A DNA stretch of 42,488 nucleotides, taken from IMG/VR virus record IMGVR_UViG_2874945390_000011; one strand, given 5' to 3'. The notes under the pieces were generated by a model. It was not told the DNA's origin. It was given only the letters and a program-made list of their open reading frames with translations, and did no database searches. Of the stretch, positions 9,645 to 29,488 are shown in pieces. The position numbers were made by a program, and so were the translations under genes. Each line of letters starts with the position of its first letter. Position 1 is the first letter of the stretch. Source of the DNA: a virus. Lineage: Duplodnaviria; Heunggongvirae; Uroviricota; Caudoviricetes.

Positions 9645-9752
9645 TCATATGCCTCCAGAAAGCAAAAAACCCACTCGAAGGCGGGTTTTATGTAGCTAGT
9701 TTTCTTTCCATGGTGATAGAAGCAATTACCGTGAAAAGTTAATTTAGCGAAC

Positions 9753-10094
9753 TCATTTCTTATTTTCAGATAGCACCAATCTACATTCTTCTTTTTTTAG
9801 AATCGTAAGAGATTGGCCACTATCGGAAAAAGAATAACCGCACTCGAAAGCGAGTTGACGCAGAGCTATTTCACCATAACTATCACCATGTTCTTTCATT
9901 AACTCATCACCAAAATCCGCCTCACGACCATTAGATACAGCGTCCATAGCCGCATTAGAAACAGCCCTATTTGTGCTCTCTCTCTTGATGATGTAGTTAT
10001 CAGCCAGTGAGGTGTGCAGTCCAAAAAAATCATTCAGCATTCCACCTACACAAATTGTTGGAGTCAACACTGCGAGAAGGAATATTTTCTTCAT
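9753..10094 (-). CDS. secreted hypothetical protein (moron inside baseplate module)
   Basis: 113-aa ORF with N-terminal signal-peptide-like segment MKKIFLLAVLTPTICVGG; AT-rich relative to flanking tail genes; own upstream intergenic region. Confidence 0.5.
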   Translation of the reverse strand: MKKIFLLAVLTPTICVGGMLNDFFGLHTSLADNYIIKRESTNRAVSNAAMDAVSNGREADFGDELMKEHGDSYGEIALRQLAFECGYSFSDSGQSLTILKKEECRLVLSENKK

Positions 10095-10129
10095 TACAAA
10101 TGTCTCTTATAGCTGATTTCTTAAAAAAA

Positions 10130-10372
10130 TTAATTACAGTACGTTGTGCCAGTATTGGTCGCCTGGCATTCACGATGTACTGCACTCCCATTAATCGTTC
10201 CTGTGGTATACGTAGTACCTGTATTGGTTGTATAATATTCTGTTTTAACTGTAGAACCACTACTGTCTGTACCAGTACAGTAAGTTGTTCCTGTATTTGA
10301 AGTGGTGCATGTTACCGCAGCCACAGAAGACAAAGTCACAAAATATACCAGTAATAAGATCCATTTAAGCAT
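10130..10372 (-). CDS. small secreted Thr/Gly-rich repeat protein (moron)
   Basis: Signal-peptide-like MLKWILLLVYFVTLSSVAA followed by about 60 aa with four Cys and repeated NTGTTY motifs; AT-rich; probable start at MLKW overlapping the hub gene stop. Confidence 0.5.
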   Translation of the reverse strand: MLKWILLLVYFVTLSSVAAVTCTTSNTGTTYCTGTDSSGSTVKTEYYTTNTGTTYTTGTINGSAVHRECQATNTGTTYCN

Positions 10373-11405
10373 TTGGTACCCCACTTATTTTCGCTATCGT
10401 ATCAGGAGTGAGTAAACTTTTACTCCCTTTAGCCAGGCAAAGCAGGTCCATATACCACGCCTGCCCTCGGGTGTCGCCAGTATAATCAATGCTGCCCACA
10501 ATGTAATCACCGTCAGTATTAATGCTGGCAGGCTGTGACATGCCTGGCAGACCGTTAACGTAGAGATTACCGTCGCTTTCAGACTCATCCAGTCGTGCTG
10601 GCGATTTCGCTACCTGGTCATTACTCAAAGAGGCACGGTATACAGATGCCTGATCCAGACGAATAAGCCCACCGAGCTTAATATTTGGATTAATCAGACA
10701 TCTGACATTTACGCCAGCTCCCATCGTCCGCTGTGGCATACTGATAAGCCCGGTGTTAGCATTCAACACCGTAGCAACACCAATATATTTATCTTCAGGA
10801 ACAATATTTACCAGATTATTTTCATACCACCAGTTAGCTTTACACTGCCCTGCGATATGATTCATCAACCTTGATGTGTTTTGATAAACAACGCGACCTC
10901 GGGGAAATACCGTTTCAGGCATGTCAGGAACTGCACCGGATTCGATGCCATATGGTTCGAATGATTTCATACCCAGACTGAAAAGATCGCTGTACTTCCA
11001 GCCAGCAGCCACTGTGGTTTTCACACTTGCGTTCAGGTGGCCTTCCCAGCTGTCAATACACTGCAACATGATCCAACTGTCTGTGGCATTATCTTTACCA
11101 GTGACAGTAAAACGGATATCTCCATTGAATATCATACCAACGTTTTCATCAGGATAATTACCTGCTGCATCCGGTTGCCCCTTGTATCCGGCAATAACCT
11201 GTATACGCGAAAACTCCTTCTGCATAATCCGGTTCTGAGTGGTAGGAGACAGGTTATAAACCTTAAAATTTCCAACAAATCCATTAAATATGGTCGCAGG
11301 CATTTTCTGAATATTGAAAGTGACTTTAAGCTCAGAAATTTTTATCCCGTCGCCCTTATCATCAACAAGCAATAATTCAAAGTGACGCATCCAGTTTTTC
11401 GACAT
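10365..11405 (-). CDS. baseplate hub-like protein
   Basis: 346-aa ORF between tape measure and spike genes in a Mu-like order; positional assignment. Confidence 0.45.
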   Translation of the reverse strand: MSKNWMRHFELLLVDDKGDGIKISELKVTFNIQKMPATIFNGFVGNFKVYNLSPTTQNRIMQKEFSRIQVIAGYKGQPDAAGNYPDENVGMIFNGDIRFTVTGKDNATDSWIMLQCIDSWEGHLNASVKTTVAAGWKYSDLFSLGMKSFEPYGIESGAVPDMPETVFPRGRVVYQNTSRLMNHIAGQCKANWWYENNLVNIVPEDKYIGVATVLNANTGLISMPQRTMGAGVNVRCLINPNIKLGGLIRLDQASVYRASLSNDQVAKSPARLDESESDGNLYVNGLPGMSQPASINTDGDYIVGSIDYTGDTRGQAWYMDLLCLAKGSKSLLTPDTIAKISGVPNA

Positions 11406-11407
11406 TG

Positions 11408-11710
11408 TTACTCCGTGAAAACATAGAGGTGTGAGAGCGTTCCAAGATCGAATTGCGTCGGATTCTCCTGCCCTGCCACGTCGCAGAGCACCACCAGAGA
11501 AAAACCCAGATCCATATATCGATACTGTGCCAGCAGGTCAGCCCCCGTAATCATCGGTATACCTGATATAATGGCGGAGCCATTGCTGTCAGCAAGATCC
11601 AGAACCCAGCACTCGCCTCGCCAGATGACAGACAGGTGATAAACCGAACCGTTAATTGTGGTGGCAAAAGTCTGATTGTCAGCAACCAGTGGGATTTCTA
11701 CGGCTTTCAT
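11408..11710 (-). CDS. hypothetical tail protein
   Basis: 100-aa ORF tightly packed between tail genes on the late strand. Confidence 0.4.
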   Translation of the reverse strand: MKAVEIPLVADNQTFATTINGSVYHLSVIWRGECWVLDLADSNGSAIISGIPMITGADLLAQYRYMDLGFSLVVLCDVAGQENPTQFDLGTLSHLYVFTE

Positions 11711-11713
11711 GAA

Positions 11714-12364
11714 TCACCTTCCCAGAAATAAATTGCTCAAATACCCATCAACAGTGGAGATACCTTCTTGCGCCATCTGTGGCAGCGATTTCAGAATGGA
11801 ATTATTCGGCGGCACCGTTGTTTTGGTGCCTGTATTCTGCACAGCAGACGTTCCGACTCCCTCGGTCATATTGTTTTTCGGGGCAACCCTGACTGACTGC
11901 GTGGAGGTAATAATTACTTCCCTGAGGGTAAGTGTCGCCAGAAGCACATTTTCACTACTCTTATCGGTCGTGACCTCCAGCGTTTTTATCAACATATTGT
12001 TGTAAATACGCTTGCCGGTTGTCACATCGAAAGGAATACGATTCCGCTGCAGGTTAAGCAGTTCCTGATACAGTTCTTTCGGGCTCAGCCCCAGTAAACT
12101 GGTAGCAGTCAGGTTACTGGCAAAATCAAGCAGCGATCTGCCTCCGGAAAAACCGGTTTCCATCACAACCTCAGAAGGGCGCCTGAATGCGTGTTCTGAT
12201 ATGTAACCAGCGCCCTCACCACTGGCACCAGCATTCGTGGGCTGTTCAACCGGATGTTCCGTAATTTCCAAGGCGTCAGTGTGCTTTTCGGTAATAACCA
12301 CATCAGGAATAATGATTCCTATTGAGCGGGTTCGCTGCTGCAGTAAAACAGATAAAAAGTCCAT
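11714..12364 (-). CDS. hypothetical tail protein downstream of tape measure
   Basis: 216-aa ORF whose start overlaps the tape measure stop; positional assignment. Confidence 0.4.
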   Translation of the reverse strand: MDFLSVLLQQRTRSIGIIIPDVVITEKHTDALEITEHPVEQPTNAGASGEGAGYISEHAFRRPSEVVMETGFSGGRSLLDFASNLTATSLLGLSPKELYQELLNLQRNRIPFDVTTGKRIYNNMLIKTLEVTTDKSSENVLLATLTLREVIITSTQSVRVAPKNNMTEGVGTSAVQNTGTKTTVPPNNSILKSLPQMAQEGISTVDGYLSNLFLGR

Positions 12365-14316
12365 TACGCAGGTCCTTTCAATTGCTGTACCGCCCTGGCA
12401 TTTACAGCCCCCTGCTTGTCAGCGATCAGATTAGCCGCCTCCTGAGGGTTGTTAACTCCATGAACATTTATAACAGTCTGCTGGTTAAGGTTGCCAGCGG
12501 CGGCCTGATACGCCAGCGGGCTGTTCCAGTTTGAATAACCTTCTTTGCGCGCCATCGACTGCATCAATGCTCCCATAGTCCGGGGATCTGTAAGATTCAA
12601 TATTGCATTCGGTGATACTCCCATCCATTTCGCAACATCCTGTGCATACTTTTTCGGATCGTTGTTATCACCTGCCGGGGCCCAGGTACTGACAATATCC
12701 TGAATAGTCTGTAATGCCCGTCCGGTTGTTTTCCCGGTAAAGTAACGCATGAGCTGGTTTTTCATCGCCTCCCAGCCCTCAAGAGCTGATTCGAAAAACC
12801 GGAACCCTTTACCGCTCACCGGGCGAATATTCCCTGGATTGTTATTCCGATCGGCTAAAGTACGCTTCGTAGACTGCGCATGTTGTTCCGGCTCAGCACC
12901 TGGAATATCTGACTGAATATTTGCGCCTTTTACGGTATGAGGATTACGACCAAAATCGGTATCAATGCCAAGCCAGCGCAATGAATCTCCAATATTTTGT
13001 TTCGTGTAATCCCAGGATGACTTCGCACTGGCACCAATATTTTCGCGATCAGAGTACAAATACGCAGCATAAGCCATCCAGCCTTTTAACCACGGCGGGA
13101 CCAGCAAACCTGATATTTTCCCGAAAGCCCCCAGAACCTTGGATACCCAGACACCCGCGATGAATGTACCGAGGATTTCCAGTGCATTTTGCCAGCCGCC
13201 AACACCATCTTTTAGTTCCAGAAGGTGATCACGAAGCCAGGTGATCGCATCCTTCGCTTTATCTATTGCTGGTTGCCATTTTTCCCAGTCGATAAGACTG
13301 TTACCGCCTTCTTTCCATGTTTTGTAGTCTTCCCACAAGAGACCGAGAGCCACGATCAGACCGGTAATCAGCCCTATAGGTGACATCCAGAAAGTAGAGT
13401 TAAGTATCCGCATGGCGACAACCAGACCGCCGATAACCTCTATCAGGGTTTTTGTTTCGGCATCCAGTTTCCCCCACCACTCGATGATATCTCCGACACC
13501 ATCGACTATCCGGAATGCACCCCGCCCGACTATCTCACCCAGCCAGAGGATCCCCTTTATGACCTTTGTGATGGTGACTTCAATTTTGGGAAAATTTTCA
13601 ATTATCTTTTTGCGCAGGTTATCAATCTGCCCCGCCAGTCCGTCCGCAAGATTCGATCCGATTTTGTCCCGCGCCATCCCGGCCATTTCACCGAGCGATT
13701 TCAGCGAGGTCATAAACCGGTTTGACGATAAGGCAGCCTGATCGGCATTAAATCCGATCGCTTTCACCATTTCTGAATACTGAGCGCTGAACTGCCCCAC
13801 TCCGCGACGCATAGCCATAAGGGTATTTTCGTCAATGCCCAGCATCTGCGCATACTGGTTAGCCCGGTAATACGGCATACCGCTGAGCTTCTGGCCTACA
13901 CCAGTAAAAATAGCGGCCATGTCACGCATGTTACTGCTGGCATCACGGGTCTGTACGCCCAGGCGATTCAGAAAGCCTTCTGCACCGGGATTGTTACGAA
14001 TAAACCGGGAGAGGCTTTCCAGAGAAGATCGCGCAGCGTCCACGCTGCCGCCAACCTGCGAAACCGCATAGCCAATAGACTGAATTCCCTGGACTGTCGC
14101 GCCGGTGCGCTGTGACGCCCAGTAAAGATTATCCAGACCGGAGGCGATCTTAGCCGTGAAGGCCACCACGGACAGCGCAGCTCCTTCAACAGCCAGCCCC
14201 ATTTTGATGACATTTGCAGTTGTACCGGCGAGGACAGAACCGAACTTTTTCGCTCCTGCATCATCCACACTGAAGCCAAGCGAGACGAGGAAATCTTTAA
14301 TAGTCTCGGCGTTCAT
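12364..14316 (-). CDS. tail tape measure protein
   Basis: 650-aa ORF with Ala/Gly-rich helical N-terminal half and hydrophobic middle segments; follows the tail assembly chaperone. Confidence 0.8.
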   Translation of the reverse strand: MNAETIKDFLVSLGFSVDDAGAKKFGSVLAGTTANVIKMGLAVEGAALSVVAFTAKIASGLDNLYWASQRTGATVQGIQSIGYAVSQVGGSVDAARSSLESLSRFIRNNPGAEGFLNRLGVQTRDASSNMRDMAAIFTGVGQKLSGMPYYRANQYAQMLGIDENTLMAMRRGVGQFSAQYSEMVKAIGFNADQAALSSNRFMTSLKSLGEMAGMARDKIGSNLADGLAGQIDNLRKKIIENFPKIEVTITKVIKGILWLGEIVGRGAFRIVDGVGDIIEWWGKLDAETKTLIEVIGGLVVAMRILNSTFWMSPIGLITGLIVALGLLWEDYKTWKEGGNSLIDWEKWQPAIDKAKDAITWLRDHLLELKDGVGGWQNALEILGTFIAGVWVSKVLGAFGKISGLLVPPWLKGWMAYAAYLYSDRENIGASAKSSWDYTKQNIGDSLRWLGIDTDFGRNPHTVKGANIQSDIPGAEPEQHAQSTKRTLADRNNNPGNIRPVSGKGFRFFESALEGWEAMKNQLMRYFTGKTTGRALQTIQDIVSTWAPAGDNNDPKKYAQDVAKWMGVSPNAILNLTDPRTMGALMQSMARKEGYSNWNSPLAYQAAAGNLNQQTVINVHGVNNPQEAANLIADKQGAVNARAVQQLKGPA

Positions 14317-25726: not shown

Positions 25727-26239
25727 TTGATGGAGTGGATAAATGCTTTGATGAACTATTTTGTACTTCATCCATATCGCCTATGGGGGCTTCTTTTTAT
25801 AATAGCGTTCACAAAATCCACTTTACTCATTTCGGCAATATTGCCACCAGCATCAATTATGATGGCCACTGTAATTACAGTCAGCAAGACGACTCTTTCA
25901 CCATGGGAAGCTGGAATCACGGTCATGAGTGGCGCATGGTGCGGTACTATCGTTAATTACCATCTTGGTATAATAATTGGGCATATCCCTCAACTTGCAT
26001 GTATAATATCGAGCCGTTCCAATACAATAGAACGGGTTCGCCTTCAGTTGCAAAATAACTCTGTGTCAATACTTTTCACTTCGCGCTTTATCGCCGTGCT
26101 GCGTTATATTGCTCCTTTGGTGGCAGGAATGTTGCAACTTCATCCAGTGAAAGTGTATACAGTGAGTCTGATTTCAGCTGCTAGCTGGTCAGCACTTTAT
26201 GTTGGTAGTTTTAGCTTCGTGTTGCCTTTTTTTAGCTAA
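25727..26239 (+). CDS. DedA/YqaA-like membrane protein (moron between lysis genes and terminase)
   Basis: 170-aa ORF with four or more predicted transmembrane segments; on the strand opposite to the late genes; AT-rich upstream region. Confidence 0.45.
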
Positions 26240-26809
26240 ACTGCCCATAAAAAGCTCTTGCGAATCCAGCTTCCCCCATTCCTCTGACAACAGAATCTGA
26301 TTTGAAGGATAATGAGTAAAATTACCGCTACCCCCAAGGCATTGGATCCAGATGTACTCCTGAAGCATTCTCAATGCTGTCTGGTCGCTGATGATTCCGT
26401 CCCGGATACCGAGAACGTTTCGTCCAGCAACTGGAGAGAGTTCGACGGTGGCATCATTGCCCATGCCGGAGGCGCTGGAGGTTTCGGCTGAGGATGGCAC
26501 AGGGCATTTTCCTTTGACGAGCACCCGACCACCATTATCAAGCTTGCGCCGAAGAGCATCATTTTCAGCTTTCGCATCAGCTAACTCCTTCGTGTATTTA
26601 GCATCGAGTGCATCAGCATCACGCTGGCGCTGCTGCATGTCAGTAATGGTTGCGTTCGCCAGCTTCAGTTCTCTTGCGTTTTTGTCGCGCTGCTCTTTGT
26701 AGGTAATGGCGTTATCACGGTAATGATTAACAGCCCATGACAGGCGGACGATGATGCAGATAACCAGAGCGGAGATAATCGCGGTGACTCTGCTCATTGC
26801 TGCCCCCAC
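26189..26809 (-). CDS. i-spanin Rz
   Basis: N-terminal 110 aa closely parallel recalled lambda Rz ([17 protein letters not shown]...[11 protein letters not shown]...[19 protein letters not shown]); about 50 codons longer than lambda Rz at the C-terminus. Confidence 0.75.
26371..26577 (-). CDS. o-spanin Rz1 lipoprotein
   Basis: Embedded in the +1 frame of Rz; lipobox-like VVGC then Pro-rich [11 protein letters not shown], as in lambda Rz1. Confidence 0.7.
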
Positions 26810-27291
26810 AAACAGACTTCACGCTCAATCTCACGACGGGTCATCAGCCCTTTCCATTGCTTACCGCCAGCATATGTCCAGCGACGTAGCTGGTCACATG
26901 CGCCTTTGATATCGCCCTGGTTTATTTTGCGAAGAAGCGTCGATGTTCTGAAATTGCCAGCGCCCACGTTGTAAACGAACGAGTAAAGAGCGCCGCGCGT
27001 TGTTTCCGGTATATCGACTTTGATGTACGGGTTAATTTGTCTGGCGACAGTGGCAAGGTCTTTATTCAGGAGAGCTTTGCATTCTGCTTCGGTATACGTT
27101 TTACCAGGCATGATGTCTTTTCCGGTGTGTCCGTGACATACAGTCCATACACCAATGATATCTTTGTATGGTATGTAGCTGACACCTTCCAGACCATCGT
27201 TACCACCTGGGCCAGTGATTAACACAGATGCTATAGCAACAGCCCCGCCACCAATAGCAACTGCAACAGCCTTGCGTAATGATGGCGACAT
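26794..27291 (-). CDS. SAR endolysin (phage 21 R-like lysozyme)
   Basis: 165-aa ORF nearly identical to recalled R21: Gly/Ala-rich N-terminal signal-anchor-release segment followed by a lysozyme catalytic region. Confidence 0.85.
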
Positions 27292-28185: not shown

Positions 28186-28260
<75 letters not shown>

Positions 28261-28263
28261 ATA

Positions 28264-28339
<76 letters not shown>

Positions 28340-28341
28340 GC

Positions 28342-28418
28342 TGGCCCACCACCGAGGACTCGAACCTCGCACCGTCAACTTAGAAGGTTGATGCTCTATC
28401 CGGATGAGCTAGTGGTGG
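28342..28418 (-). tRNA. tRNA-Arg (anticodon UCU)
   Basis: CCACCACUAGCUCAUCCGGAUAGAGCAUCAACCUUCUAAGUUGACGGUGCGAGGUUCGAGUCCUCGGUGGUGGGCCA; 7-bp acceptor stem, anticodon stem UCAAC/GUUGA, loop CUUCUAA. Only 1 nt from the next tRNA, so the 5' boundary is uncertain. Confidence 0.65.
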
Positions 28419-28419
28419 T

Positions 28420-28496
28420 TGGTGGCCCTTGCTGGACTTGAACCAGCGACCTGGCGATTATGAGTCGCTCGCTCTGACCAACTGAGCTAAAGGGCC
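28420..28496 (-). tRNA. tRNA with anticodon CAU (Ile2-like, ileX/ileZ type; Met not excluded)
   Basis: GGCCCUUUAGCUCAGUUGGUCAGAGCGAGCGACUCAUAAUCGCCAGGUCGCUGGUUCAAGUCCAGCAAGGGCCACCA; closely resembles recalled E. coli ileX; anticodon loop CUCAUAA. Confidence 0.7.
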
Positions 28497-28685: not shown

Positions 28686-29240
28686 TCAAAAAGCAATAAC
28701 TTTTTTCTCTATACCAAAAGCCATAACCATTGGTTTGTACAAAATAAATTCTGCCACCTTTAGCCAATGCTCAATGCGTCTTTCACAGGTTCTTAAACTC
28801 CATTTCGGGTGTGCATCATTCAGCAGTTCAGCCATTTTGCGTTTGGTCATCCCCCGCCCCTCATACCGTTGCCGAAGGACGCTAATCAATCCTGGATGCT
28901 CTGCCAGCACCTCACTTATGACCCGATCAATACATAACGCCTCTGCATCAGTACAATGCGCCAGCCAGCTCTTTTGCTTACCGTTAATCATATCCCGCAA
29001 AAAAGCCTCAAGTTCAGACTTGTTCAGACCTGCTTTTTTCATCCTCCGGAGCGCCTCGTTAATTGCCGTTTTTGTCAGCTTTTTAGAGGTCAACATCAGG
29101 TTAAACATATTCCCCGTCTTACCGCCACCAATATACGACCAGCGCCCCCACATACGTAGTTTTCCCTGAATCCAGACACTTTCCAGCGTGGTGAGACGAA
29201 GGTGTTCTCCGCTTTTTCCTGTATTCGTTGGGTAAATCAT
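28686..29240 (-). CDS. putative late-gene antiterminator (Q-like)
   Basis: About 185-aa ORF (start taken at internal MIYPTNTG, overlapping the ybcO-like stop) immediately upstream of the tRNA cluster and lysis cassette; positional assignment. Confidence 0.5.
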   Translation of the reverse strand: MIYPTNTGKSGEHLRLTTLESVWIQGKLRMWGRWSYIGGGKTGNMFNLMLTSKKLTKTAINEALRRMKKAGLNKSELEAFLRDMINGKQKSWLAHCTDAEALCIDRVISEVLAEHPGLISVLRQRYEGRGMTKRKMAELLNDAHPKWSLRTCERRIEHWLKVAEFILYKPMVMAFGIEKKVIAF

Positions 29241-29488
29241 AAATATCCCTCCTTTCTCCAGATTTCTTGTGTGCGAAAAACACCTTCTGCATGCATCAGG
29301 CGTAATTCTTCTTTGGTGTAATCGCTGGTTTTTACCCGCCCGTCGATTAAATCGTGGCACGAGCTACAGGCAATCGCTGCCTGCATATCGTGTGGCTTTA
29401 TCGCTGTTCCGCACGTTCCCGCCAGTCGGTAATGCGCCAGCACAGACGTTTCCGGATCGTGATTGCAGTAGCCAGGAATTCTGACGGT
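29237..29488 (-). pseudogene. YbcO-like (DUF1364) nin-region protein, 3' part, disrupted by IS600
   Basis: Translation VRIPGYCNHDPETSVLAHYRLAGTCGTAIKPHDMQAAIACSSCHDLIDGR matches recalled E. coli DLP12 YbcO; the reading frame is broken by IS600 at 29488/29489. Confidence 0.7.

Follow-up and report, generated by a model that had tools for sequence, protein, structure and literature searches.

Two genes for small, putatively exported proteins between the hub and spike genes of a contractile-tail prophage

The Cor proteins, a family from phages T1, phi80, N15 and HK022, mediate superinfection exclusion, as does Llp of phage T5; Llp (61 amino acids, aa) and Cor are small exported lipoproteins that contain an intramolecular disulfide and are encoded beside tail-tip or receptor-binding genes (PMC9586334). 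Spackle (gp61.3) of phage T4 carries a cleaved periplasmic signal, and its mature form, a helical protein of 75 aa with one disulfide, inhibits the tail-tip lysozyme of incoming phages of the same kind (PMC7677548). With regard to the order of tail genes, those for gp17 to gp24 of Pam3 are contiguous, the hub gene (gp19) adjoins the spike gene (gp20), and six components suffice for the baseplate (PMC9942802). According to Rousset et al. (2022), as cited within PMC11364771, P2-like phages and the P4 satellite possess defence hotspots in which a fixed junction holds interchangeable accessory cassettes. Here, we describe two small open reading frames (ORFs), termed ORF-A and ORF-B, that lie between the hub and spike genes of a Caudoviricetes prophage (IMG/VR record IMGVR_UViG_2874945390_000011), which was analysed as one stretch of 42,488 nucleotides (nt) and is referred to below as the window. 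Both ORFs appear to encode exported proteins; ORF-A fills a slot that is conserved in related prophages, and ORF-B behaves as accessory cargo behind it.

ORF-A and ORF-B as putative exported proteins

A sequence-only reading of the window had placed two ORFs between a hub-like gene and a spike gene. Both ORFs are present, and the identities of hub and spike were supported by profile matches. The features of the segment are as follows.

10365-11405, minus strand: baseplate hub, 346 aa, upstream neighbour of ORF-A (phrog_196, E=8e-79; PF22759, E217_GP41)
10365-10425, minus strand: last 19 hub codons and stop, left edge of the variable segment
10130-10372, minus strand: ORF-A, 80-aa precursor with a 61-aa Thr/Gly-rich mature part
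10316-10372, minus strand: signal-peptide coding part of ORF-A, MLKWILLLVYFVTLSSVAA, 19 aa, with cleavage predicted between VAA and VT
9753-10094, minus strand: ORF-B, 113-aa precursor, phrog_13007, starting 35 nt behind ORF-A
10044-10094, minus strand: predicted signal-peptide coding part of ORF-B, MKKIFLLAVLTPTICVG followed by G; homologues align with VFA, ASA and VSA sites, each followed by G
10007-10300, plus strand: antisense ORF, 97 aa, overlapping ORF-A and ORF-B, also open in the Salmonella locus
9660-9689, minus strand: intrinsic-terminator-like hairpin and T run (stem 9666-9689), AAAACCCGCC TTCGAG TGGGTTTT
9652-9656, minus strand: ribosome-binding site of the spike gene, GGAGG, 7 nt upstream of the spike ATG at 9644
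8892-9644, minus strand: spike, membrane-puncturing, 250 aa, downstream neighbour (N-terminal spike domain, E=1e-44, and GpV Apex motif)

ORF-A had originally been listed as 10130-10384, an 84-aa frame with a GTG start. This start was rejected, because the homologues are all 77-80 aa long and an in-frame stop cuts off the upstream GTG in the Trabulsiella locus (L013). Judged from the alignment of homologues, translation almost certainly begins with the ATG at 10372, which is conserved among them and overlaps the hub stop codon (ATGCTTAA). The N terminus encoded from this ATG, MLKWILLLVYFVTLSSVAA, is followed by VTC after the predicted cleavage site, and the resulting mature protein of 61 aa contains 22 Thr, 7 Gly and 4 Cys residues. 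The Thr/Gly-rich region with four Cys and repeated NTGTTY motifs that had been read from the sequence was thus recovered, the motifs being three in number (at residues 26, 50 and 73) and corresponding to three 22-nt DNA repeats spaced by 69 and 72 nt. Homologues of ORF-A fell into nine clusters from at least six genera with 43-55% identity; Cys 22, 32, 69 and 79 are invariant in them, and the TGTTYC motifs are kept. The codon ACA, which is read by a Thr-UGU tRNA encoded in the window, accounts for 10 of the 23 Thr codons of ORF-A versus 16-25% in the tail genes checked, which may be coincidence.

The ORF-A family is largely invisible to current annotation. There is no coding sequence at this place in a near-identical RefSeq prophage (L001 4495-4766, equal to window 10094-10365), and the homologue in Salmonella contigs (L008 5730-6001) was also left uncalled by the gene caller. 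The 97-aa antisense ORF was considered as a gene and rejected as a by-product of the few stops that arise opposite Thr/Gly-rich codons.

ORF-B was matched over its full length (residues 1-113, E=1.1e-35) by the profile of phrog_13007, a family without an assigned function. This family is small: when 1.8 billion representative proteins were searched with a profile, it had about 20 representatives at 50% identity, and no match to ORF-B was found among isolated phages by tblastn against 50,697 phage records. The N terminus MKKIFLLAVLTPTICVG is followed by G after the predicted cleavage site, leaving about 96 aa of mature protein, which has an acidic composition, a predicted helical fold and two invariant Cys residues. 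In an alignment of 18 relatives, G70, C85 and C104 were the sole invariant residues of the mature part. The Cys within the hydrophobic region of ORF-B is not conserved, and the corresponding regions of the homologues end in A-x-A/G sites.

In comparisons of ORF-A and ORF-B with distant homologues, the proportion of synonymous differences (pS) was approximately 0.71-0.88, such that synonymous sites are saturated; the proportion of nonsynonymous differences (pN) was approximately 0.24-0.31 for the closer homologues and reached 0.47-0.51 for the most divergent relatives of ORF-B. Since pN lies well below the saturated pS, and since length and Cys residues are conserved, ORF-A and ORF-B are both real genes under purifying selection. 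The N-terminal 17-22 residues drift in both families, yet they continue to open with basic residues, to form a hydrophobic core and to place small residues at -3 and -1, and this signal-peptide-like pattern was kept in every member of both families, as the signal peptides read from the window alone had led us to expect. Drift of the sequence with retention of the n-, h- and c-region pattern points to the signal-peptide mode of evolution. This pattern, together with the conservation of Cys in the mature parts and the existence of four slot-1 relatives with true lipoboxes (see below), argues strongly that both proteins are exported by way of cleavable Sec-type signals. The mature forms of both ORF-A and ORF-B would be expected to contain disulfide bonds.

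The hub-spike gap in related prophages

A search anchored on the hub protein yielded 61 loci from species-representative genomes, loci found via ORF-A or ORF-B were added, and every hub-to-spike gap was analysed; slot counts below refer to 66 distinct related loci across Enterobacterales, and counts of the hairpin and of HEPN cargo refer to 69 loci. The length of the gap ranged from 38 to about 2,600 nt. In 63 of the 66 loci, the first gene after the hub gene (slot 1) encodes a small protein with the sequence features of export, which was phrog_3443-like in 54, ORF-A-like in 7 and another exported protein in 2; three related loci had an empty gap between hub and spike. The phrog_3443-type proteins are 110-120 aa long and consist of a signal peptide followed by a ..QCG.. 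motif, with one Cys near each end; four of the 54 are longer and possess true lipoboxes. The phrog_3443 and ORF-A families were never found together in one locus; the start codon of slot 1 mostly either overlaps the stop codon of the hub gene or lies directly beside it. Because the slot after the hub gene nearly always holds a small exported protein, ORF-A represents the less common of the two families that alternate in this conserved slot, and is not a simple insert.

The family of ORF-B was present in 8 of the 66 loci, and ORF-B behaves as accessory cargo. The "two-gene insert" of the sequence-only reading therefore survived for ORF-B and not for ORF-A. Of 8 ORF-A-type loci, 5 also hold a member of the ORF-B family, one of them in a divergent Cronobacter prophage, as against 4 of 54 loci with phrog_3443. 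The ORF-A and ORF-B families are thus found together more often than expected, but this co-occurrence is only suggestive, because close relatives are included among the ORF-A-type loci and two are near-identical. The families extend over Enterobacterales from plants, insects and the environment, for example Pantoea, Rahnella, Serratia and Hafnia.

A comparison with related prophages, as proposed in the sequence-only reading, showed that the segment varies: it was found whole in 6 of 5,426 complete E. coli genomes, versus 48 that have the neighbouring start of the spike gene and the hairpin in common. The genome of E. coli FDAARGOS_943 (NZ_CP065615.1 2060512-2062916) contains the segment with an IS1 element inserted in it. 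Where the slot-1 family differs, the similarity between hubs of 96-98% identity breaks off sharply after ...CLAKG (at about 10425, 19 codons before the stop), which indicates that the exchanged unit includes the C-terminal tail of the hub.

Other cargo in the gap included a HEPN-like pair (13 occurrences among the 69 loci) composed of a HEPN_IX-like protein and a partner of 243-273 aa, YafO with a partner, Phd-Fic, a membrane-anchored T5orf172 protein of 409 aa, and further exported or membrane proteins. Gaps with toxin-antitoxin or defence-like cargo are those of L002 (4115-5286), L004 (4110-5269), L003 (4088-5078), L008 (6494-7332), L032, L052 and L062. The hub-spike bay has the look of a hotspot, not described before, for genes of defence or toxin-antitoxin systems; nothing specific on a hotspot at this junction or on this phage lineage was found in the literature. 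Exported second genes lie closer to slot 1 than do cytoplasmic cassettes (median, 21 versus 77 nt; p=0.003), and the 77-nt median spacing of the latter provides space for a promoter. For relatives of ORF-B, the distance from the gene before them is -22 to +35 nt. The gaps of L015, L017 and L020 hold one cargo family of 145-150-aa proteins with an N-terminal membrane helix and a Cys-rich C terminus, YIWRS.ED...C.EC..NNGK.F.W, which appears similar to the conserved motif of Mu-F/SPP1-gp7-type head proteins.

Members of the ORF-B family were also found in tail operons of differing architecture. One relative follows the spike gene of a different myovirus, one is flanked by the Dit-like gene and the plug gene in a further myovirus, and two separate cases (L076 5001-5348; L078 5001-5366) lie between gpK-like (JAB/NlpC-P60) and gpI-like genes in lambda-like siphovirus tail-tip operons. 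Since relatives occur in siphovirus tail-tip operons as well, ORF-B would appear to belong to one exported family that moves between tail types. In addition, an exported N-terminal domain of about 200 aa is fused to an ORF-B-type domain in P0030 and to a phrog_3443 domain in L025 and L035, where it carries a lipobox. This arrangement suggests that the phrog_3443 and ORF-B-type domains may be interchangeable modules.

The segment had been described as more AT-rich than its flanks, and the GC content of the 720 nt at 9645-10364 was indeed 0.392, versus 0.496 for the whole window, placing it in the 0.3rd percentile of all 720-nt pieces of that length. The weak hairpin reported ahead of the spike gene is likewise real: its stem comprises 9 pairs, of which 4 are G-C and one is G.U, and its energy of -9.9 kcal/mol makes it the weakest version of a hairpin conserved in the lineage. 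The hairpin (ACCCGC...GCGGGT followed by T6-7) was present in 61 of the 69 loci irrespective of cargo, and compensatory changes in the stem occur in a few of them. It sits just ahead of the site at which ribosomes bind for the spike gene, also where the gap is without cargo (three loci), and is missing from six loci that hold a slot-1 gene alone. The CTGGAG...ATG pattern ahead of the spike is also conserved in relatives. Because the hairpin is conserved in loci without cargo genes as well, the terminator is part of the phage backbone and not of any insert.

A promoter scan of the window gave one promoter-like site, versus 3.1 expected by chance, and this site lies within invariant hub coding sequence; such a consensus scan is weak evidence either way. 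In scans of the window and of two relatives, counts were at or below chance.

As a whole, the window is a prophage, with lambdoid early genes, a Q-like antiterminator, a contractile-tail module and four tRNA genes. Apart from the features listed above, those relevant here are as follows.

12364-14316, minus strand: tape-measure protein
11714-12364, minus strand: Dit-like tube initiator
11408-11710, minus strand: Pam3-gp18-type plug
8539-8892, minus strand: sheath initiator
7340-8539, minus strand: baseplate J
6663-7343, minus strand: wedge protein (DUF2612)
After the wedge protein in transcription order, minus strand: tail fibre and its assembly protein
28710-29264, minus strand: Q-like antiterminator (phrog_753, E=2e-78), located ahead of the tRNA, lysis and structural genes
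28186-28496, minus strand: four tRNA genes, Gly-UCC, Thr-UGU, Arg-UCU and one with a CAU anticodon (Ile according to RefSeq)
Complete lysis cassette: a holin, a lysozyme (26794-27291) and an Rz-type spanin (26189-26809)
1057-2820, plus strand: ipaH type III secretion effector at the prophage end (NEL E3-ligase domain, E=7e-77, and LRR_TTSS domain)

The order of transcription is tape-measure, Dit-like, plug, hub, ORF-A, ORF-B, hairpin, spike, sheath initiator, baseplate J, wedge and fibre. The only other part of the window that is equally AT-rich, 421-1230, lies just upstream of ipaH and overlaps its 5' end.

Possible functions of ORF-A and ORF-B

An envelope-acting or exclusion role, as had been put forward in the sequence-only reading, would be the most plausible function of the two proteins. 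More specifically, we consider it possible, although somewhat short of probable, that ORF-A and ORF-B, made together with the late genes, block the entry of phages from within the periplasm or mask a receptor. The hub-spike junction is a dedicated bay for accessory genes, with a putatively exported disulfide protein in slot 1 and ORF-B as an optional second gene. Both genes would be transcribed with the late tail operon; such co-expression is supported by the slot-1 start at the hub stop, the tight spacing of ORF-B, the lack of a promoter above chance and the presence of a Q-like antiterminator. ORF-A and the hub would probably be coupled in translation. Late transcription would be carried through the terminator at 9660-9689 by the Q-like antiterminator, and the main job of this terminator may be to keep transcription of other origin, such as that started at cargo promoters in lysogens, out of the spike and wedge genes. 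Both proteins would cross the inner membrane via Sec, lose their signal peptides, fold in the periplasm with disulfides and act there, either against the tail tips of incoming phages or from the periplasmic side on envelope receptors, without being parts of the virion. The effects could be a block to superinfection, less envelope damage from further adsorbing particles and less loss of progeny on cell debris. The proteins would then resemble in their action, though not by descent, T4 Spackle, which interferes with penetration by the tail, or T5 Llp and Cor, which mask a receptor. A link to the tail tip or to entry is suggested by context, in that relatives of ORF-B recur in tail-tip operons of differing architecture. 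Rapid divergence, alternative slot families, repeated placement at the tail tip and neighbouring conflict genes all fit an arms-race interface.

Several results weigh against a periplasmic block on entry. When ORF-A and ORF-B were compared with Pfam, NCBIfam, PHROGs (to E=10) and PADLOC, the only match was phrog_13007 for ORF-B, and profile searches of all PDB sequences with both proteins gave chance matches only. Of the checks that had been proposed for the segment, the homology search thus placed ORF-B in a family and matched ORF-A to none in these databases. AlphaFold2 models built from the small family alignments were poor: the model of ORF-A was a beta-hairpin meander with a predicted local distance difference test score (pLDDT) of 61, and that of ORF-B was a low-confidence helical hairpin with a pLDDT of 54. 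Fold searches with these models were empty; Foldseek against PDB returned nothing usable for ORF-A (matches to NanoLuc had E>0.3 and were disregarded) and, with the poor model of ORF-B, nothing usable either. Expression would seem to be late only, an odd time for exclusion of the classic kind by a prophage, and the scans revealed no lysogenic promoter. In addition, hubs and spikes that are 96-98% identical adjoin entirely different slot-1 families, and near-identical hubs and spikes beside unrelated slot-1 proteins make it unlikely that the target is the phage's own hub or spike. Finally, no muralytic domain was confirmed by Pfam in the tape-measure protein of the window, which is called a lytic transglycosylase in the RefSeq annotation and whose Pantoea homologue matches SLT.

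The two proteins might instead be lysis or envelope-remodelling factors, made late, that tune the endolysin/spanin step or the state of peptidoglycan or outer membrane for release. A location in the late operon and a predicted periplasmic destination would suit such factors, and the near-universal presence of slot 1 in the lineage fits a phage-intrinsic function better than optional defence. However, a complete holin/lysozyme/Rz cassette already lies elsewhere in the window, for which reason a spanin or lysis-cassette role was rejected; neither protein resembles antiholins or spanins, and the relatives of ORF-B are found in tail-tip operons, not in lysis cassettes. On this evidence, a part in release appears improbable.

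We also regard as unlikely a lysogenic-conversion role that would benefit the host, such as in the envelope, stress tolerance or host interaction, after the manner of lambda Bor or Lom. The AT-rich foreign composition of the segment, its variability among relatives and the terminator behind it are moron-like, and the prophage also carries the ipaH effector gene. Nevertheless, there is no promoter signal above chance and the ORF-A start overlaps the hub stop, and the spread of the families through Pantoea, Rahnella, Serratia and Hafnia makes a pathogen-specific role unlikely.

A function as virion or assembly components, such as a tip-sharpening PAAR-like protein or a membrane-active protein in the tail lumen, would call for the hydrophobic N terminus to remain uncleaved and is very unlikely. 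The position between hub and spike, in a near-universal slot that abuts the hub stop, would be as expected for such components, and the four invariant Cys residues of ORF-A could bind metal. Yet what is conserved among the related phages is the position only, and not a set of structural baseplate components: small residues at -3 and -1 are maintained, some slot-1 relatives are true lipoproteins, and two unrelated slot families stand beside hubs and spikes that are otherwise all but the same. Moreover, no PAAR or structural match was obtained in Pfam, and the ORF-B family extends into siphovirus tail operons. A structural role is further made unlikely by the Pam3 baseplate, which needs six components and has no such protein, and by the three loci with an empty gap. 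That ORF-A and ORF-B could be chance ORFs in a non-coding AT-rich spacer may be dismissed as hardly credible, since, although ORF-A is unannotated by RefSeq and metagenome gene callers and the 97-aa antisense ORF is also open, homologues of modest identity keep length, frame, signal peptide and four Cys across genera, pN is well below pS, and ORF-B has a PHROG family.

If the two proteins do act as a periplasmic block on entry, two unrelated families would join the short list of periplasmic exclusion proteins, which comprises T4 Spackle, P1 Sim and the Llp/Cor lipoproteins, and such exclusion factors would prove to be routinely wired into baseplate and tail-tip operons. A wider generalization, which at present we hold to be doubtful, is that the interchangeable slot-1 families and the mobile ORF-B family make up a new polymorphic class of late periplasmic factors directed against tail-tip penetration by phages, and perhaps by tailocins, such that a Spackle-like principle would extend far beyond the T-even phages; the slot-1 families concerned are the phrog_3443-like proteins, the ORF-A-like proteins and the lipoprotein fusions. 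Whatever the function, there is a previously unlisted accessory bay between hub and spike, with a conserved terminator, in a prophage lineage that is widespread in Enterobacterales. New defence and toxin-antitoxin cassettes could practicably be sought in this bay, and annotation pipelines currently miss ORF-A altogether.

Comparison with known systems

With respect to Llp and Cor, the likeness lies in size, Cys content and genomic position: the mature part of ORF-A is also 61 aa and has four invariant Cys, mature ORF-B has two invariant Cys, and both genes lie among tail genes. Llp and Cor, however, are anchored by an N-terminal Cys, whereas the ORF-A and ORF-B families are without a lipobox ([LVI][ASTVI][GAS]C); the first Cys of ORF-A is preceded by V-T, and that of its homologues by I-T, V-E or V-S. 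The neighbours also differ, being here a contractile-tail hub and spike and not a receptor-binding protein. The Cor-like role that the sequence-only reading had thought plausible did not hold in the sense of family membership, and membership in the Cor/Llp family was rejected on the grounds that there is no lipobox and that no relationship to Cor/Llp or to an annotated exclusion family was detected in PHROGs, Pfam or NCBIfam, even at E up to 10.

Spackle is resembled by ORF-B, in that ORF-B is predicted to be helical (from a low-confidence model) and has one invariant Cys pair. The gene for Spackle, however, is an early one at a distance from the tail genes, whereas ORF-B is located within the late baseplate operon. 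A profile search of PDB sequences that included Spackle gave no relationship, and Foldseek against PDB, run with a poor model, gave nothing below E=4; membership was rejected for lack of homology.

The classic lambdoid tail-region morons (lambda lom and bor; gp15, the exclusion protein of HK97) are extra genes in late operons that have their own promoter and terminator, and several of them encode envelope proteins. The segment described here is similar in its deviant GC content, its variable presence among relatives and the terminator downstream, but it differs in three respects: the start codon of ORF-A overlaps the stop codon of the hub gene, promoter-like signals do not rise above chance, and slot 1 is a conserved and not an optional element. 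The hub-spike junction is comparable to the hotspots of P2-like phages and P4 in carrying interchangeable cassettes (HEPN-like, YafO, Phd-Fic and T5orf172); it differs from them in phage lineage and in junction, and ORF-A and ORF-B, as putatively exported proteins, had no PADLOC match.

The gene order of the window is shared with Pam3, a solved minimal myovirus, but no counterpart of ORF-A or ORF-B exists among the Pam3 baseplate components. Because the hub and spike genes of Pam3 are adjacent and six proteins complete its baseplate, ORF-A and ORF-B are considered to be without a structural counterpart, which agrees with the earlier view that their products are unlike tail proteins, as does the absence of any match to a structural family. 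Together, these comparisons suggest that ORF-A and ORF-B are best described as putative accessory exported proteins embedded in tail-tip and baseplate operons.

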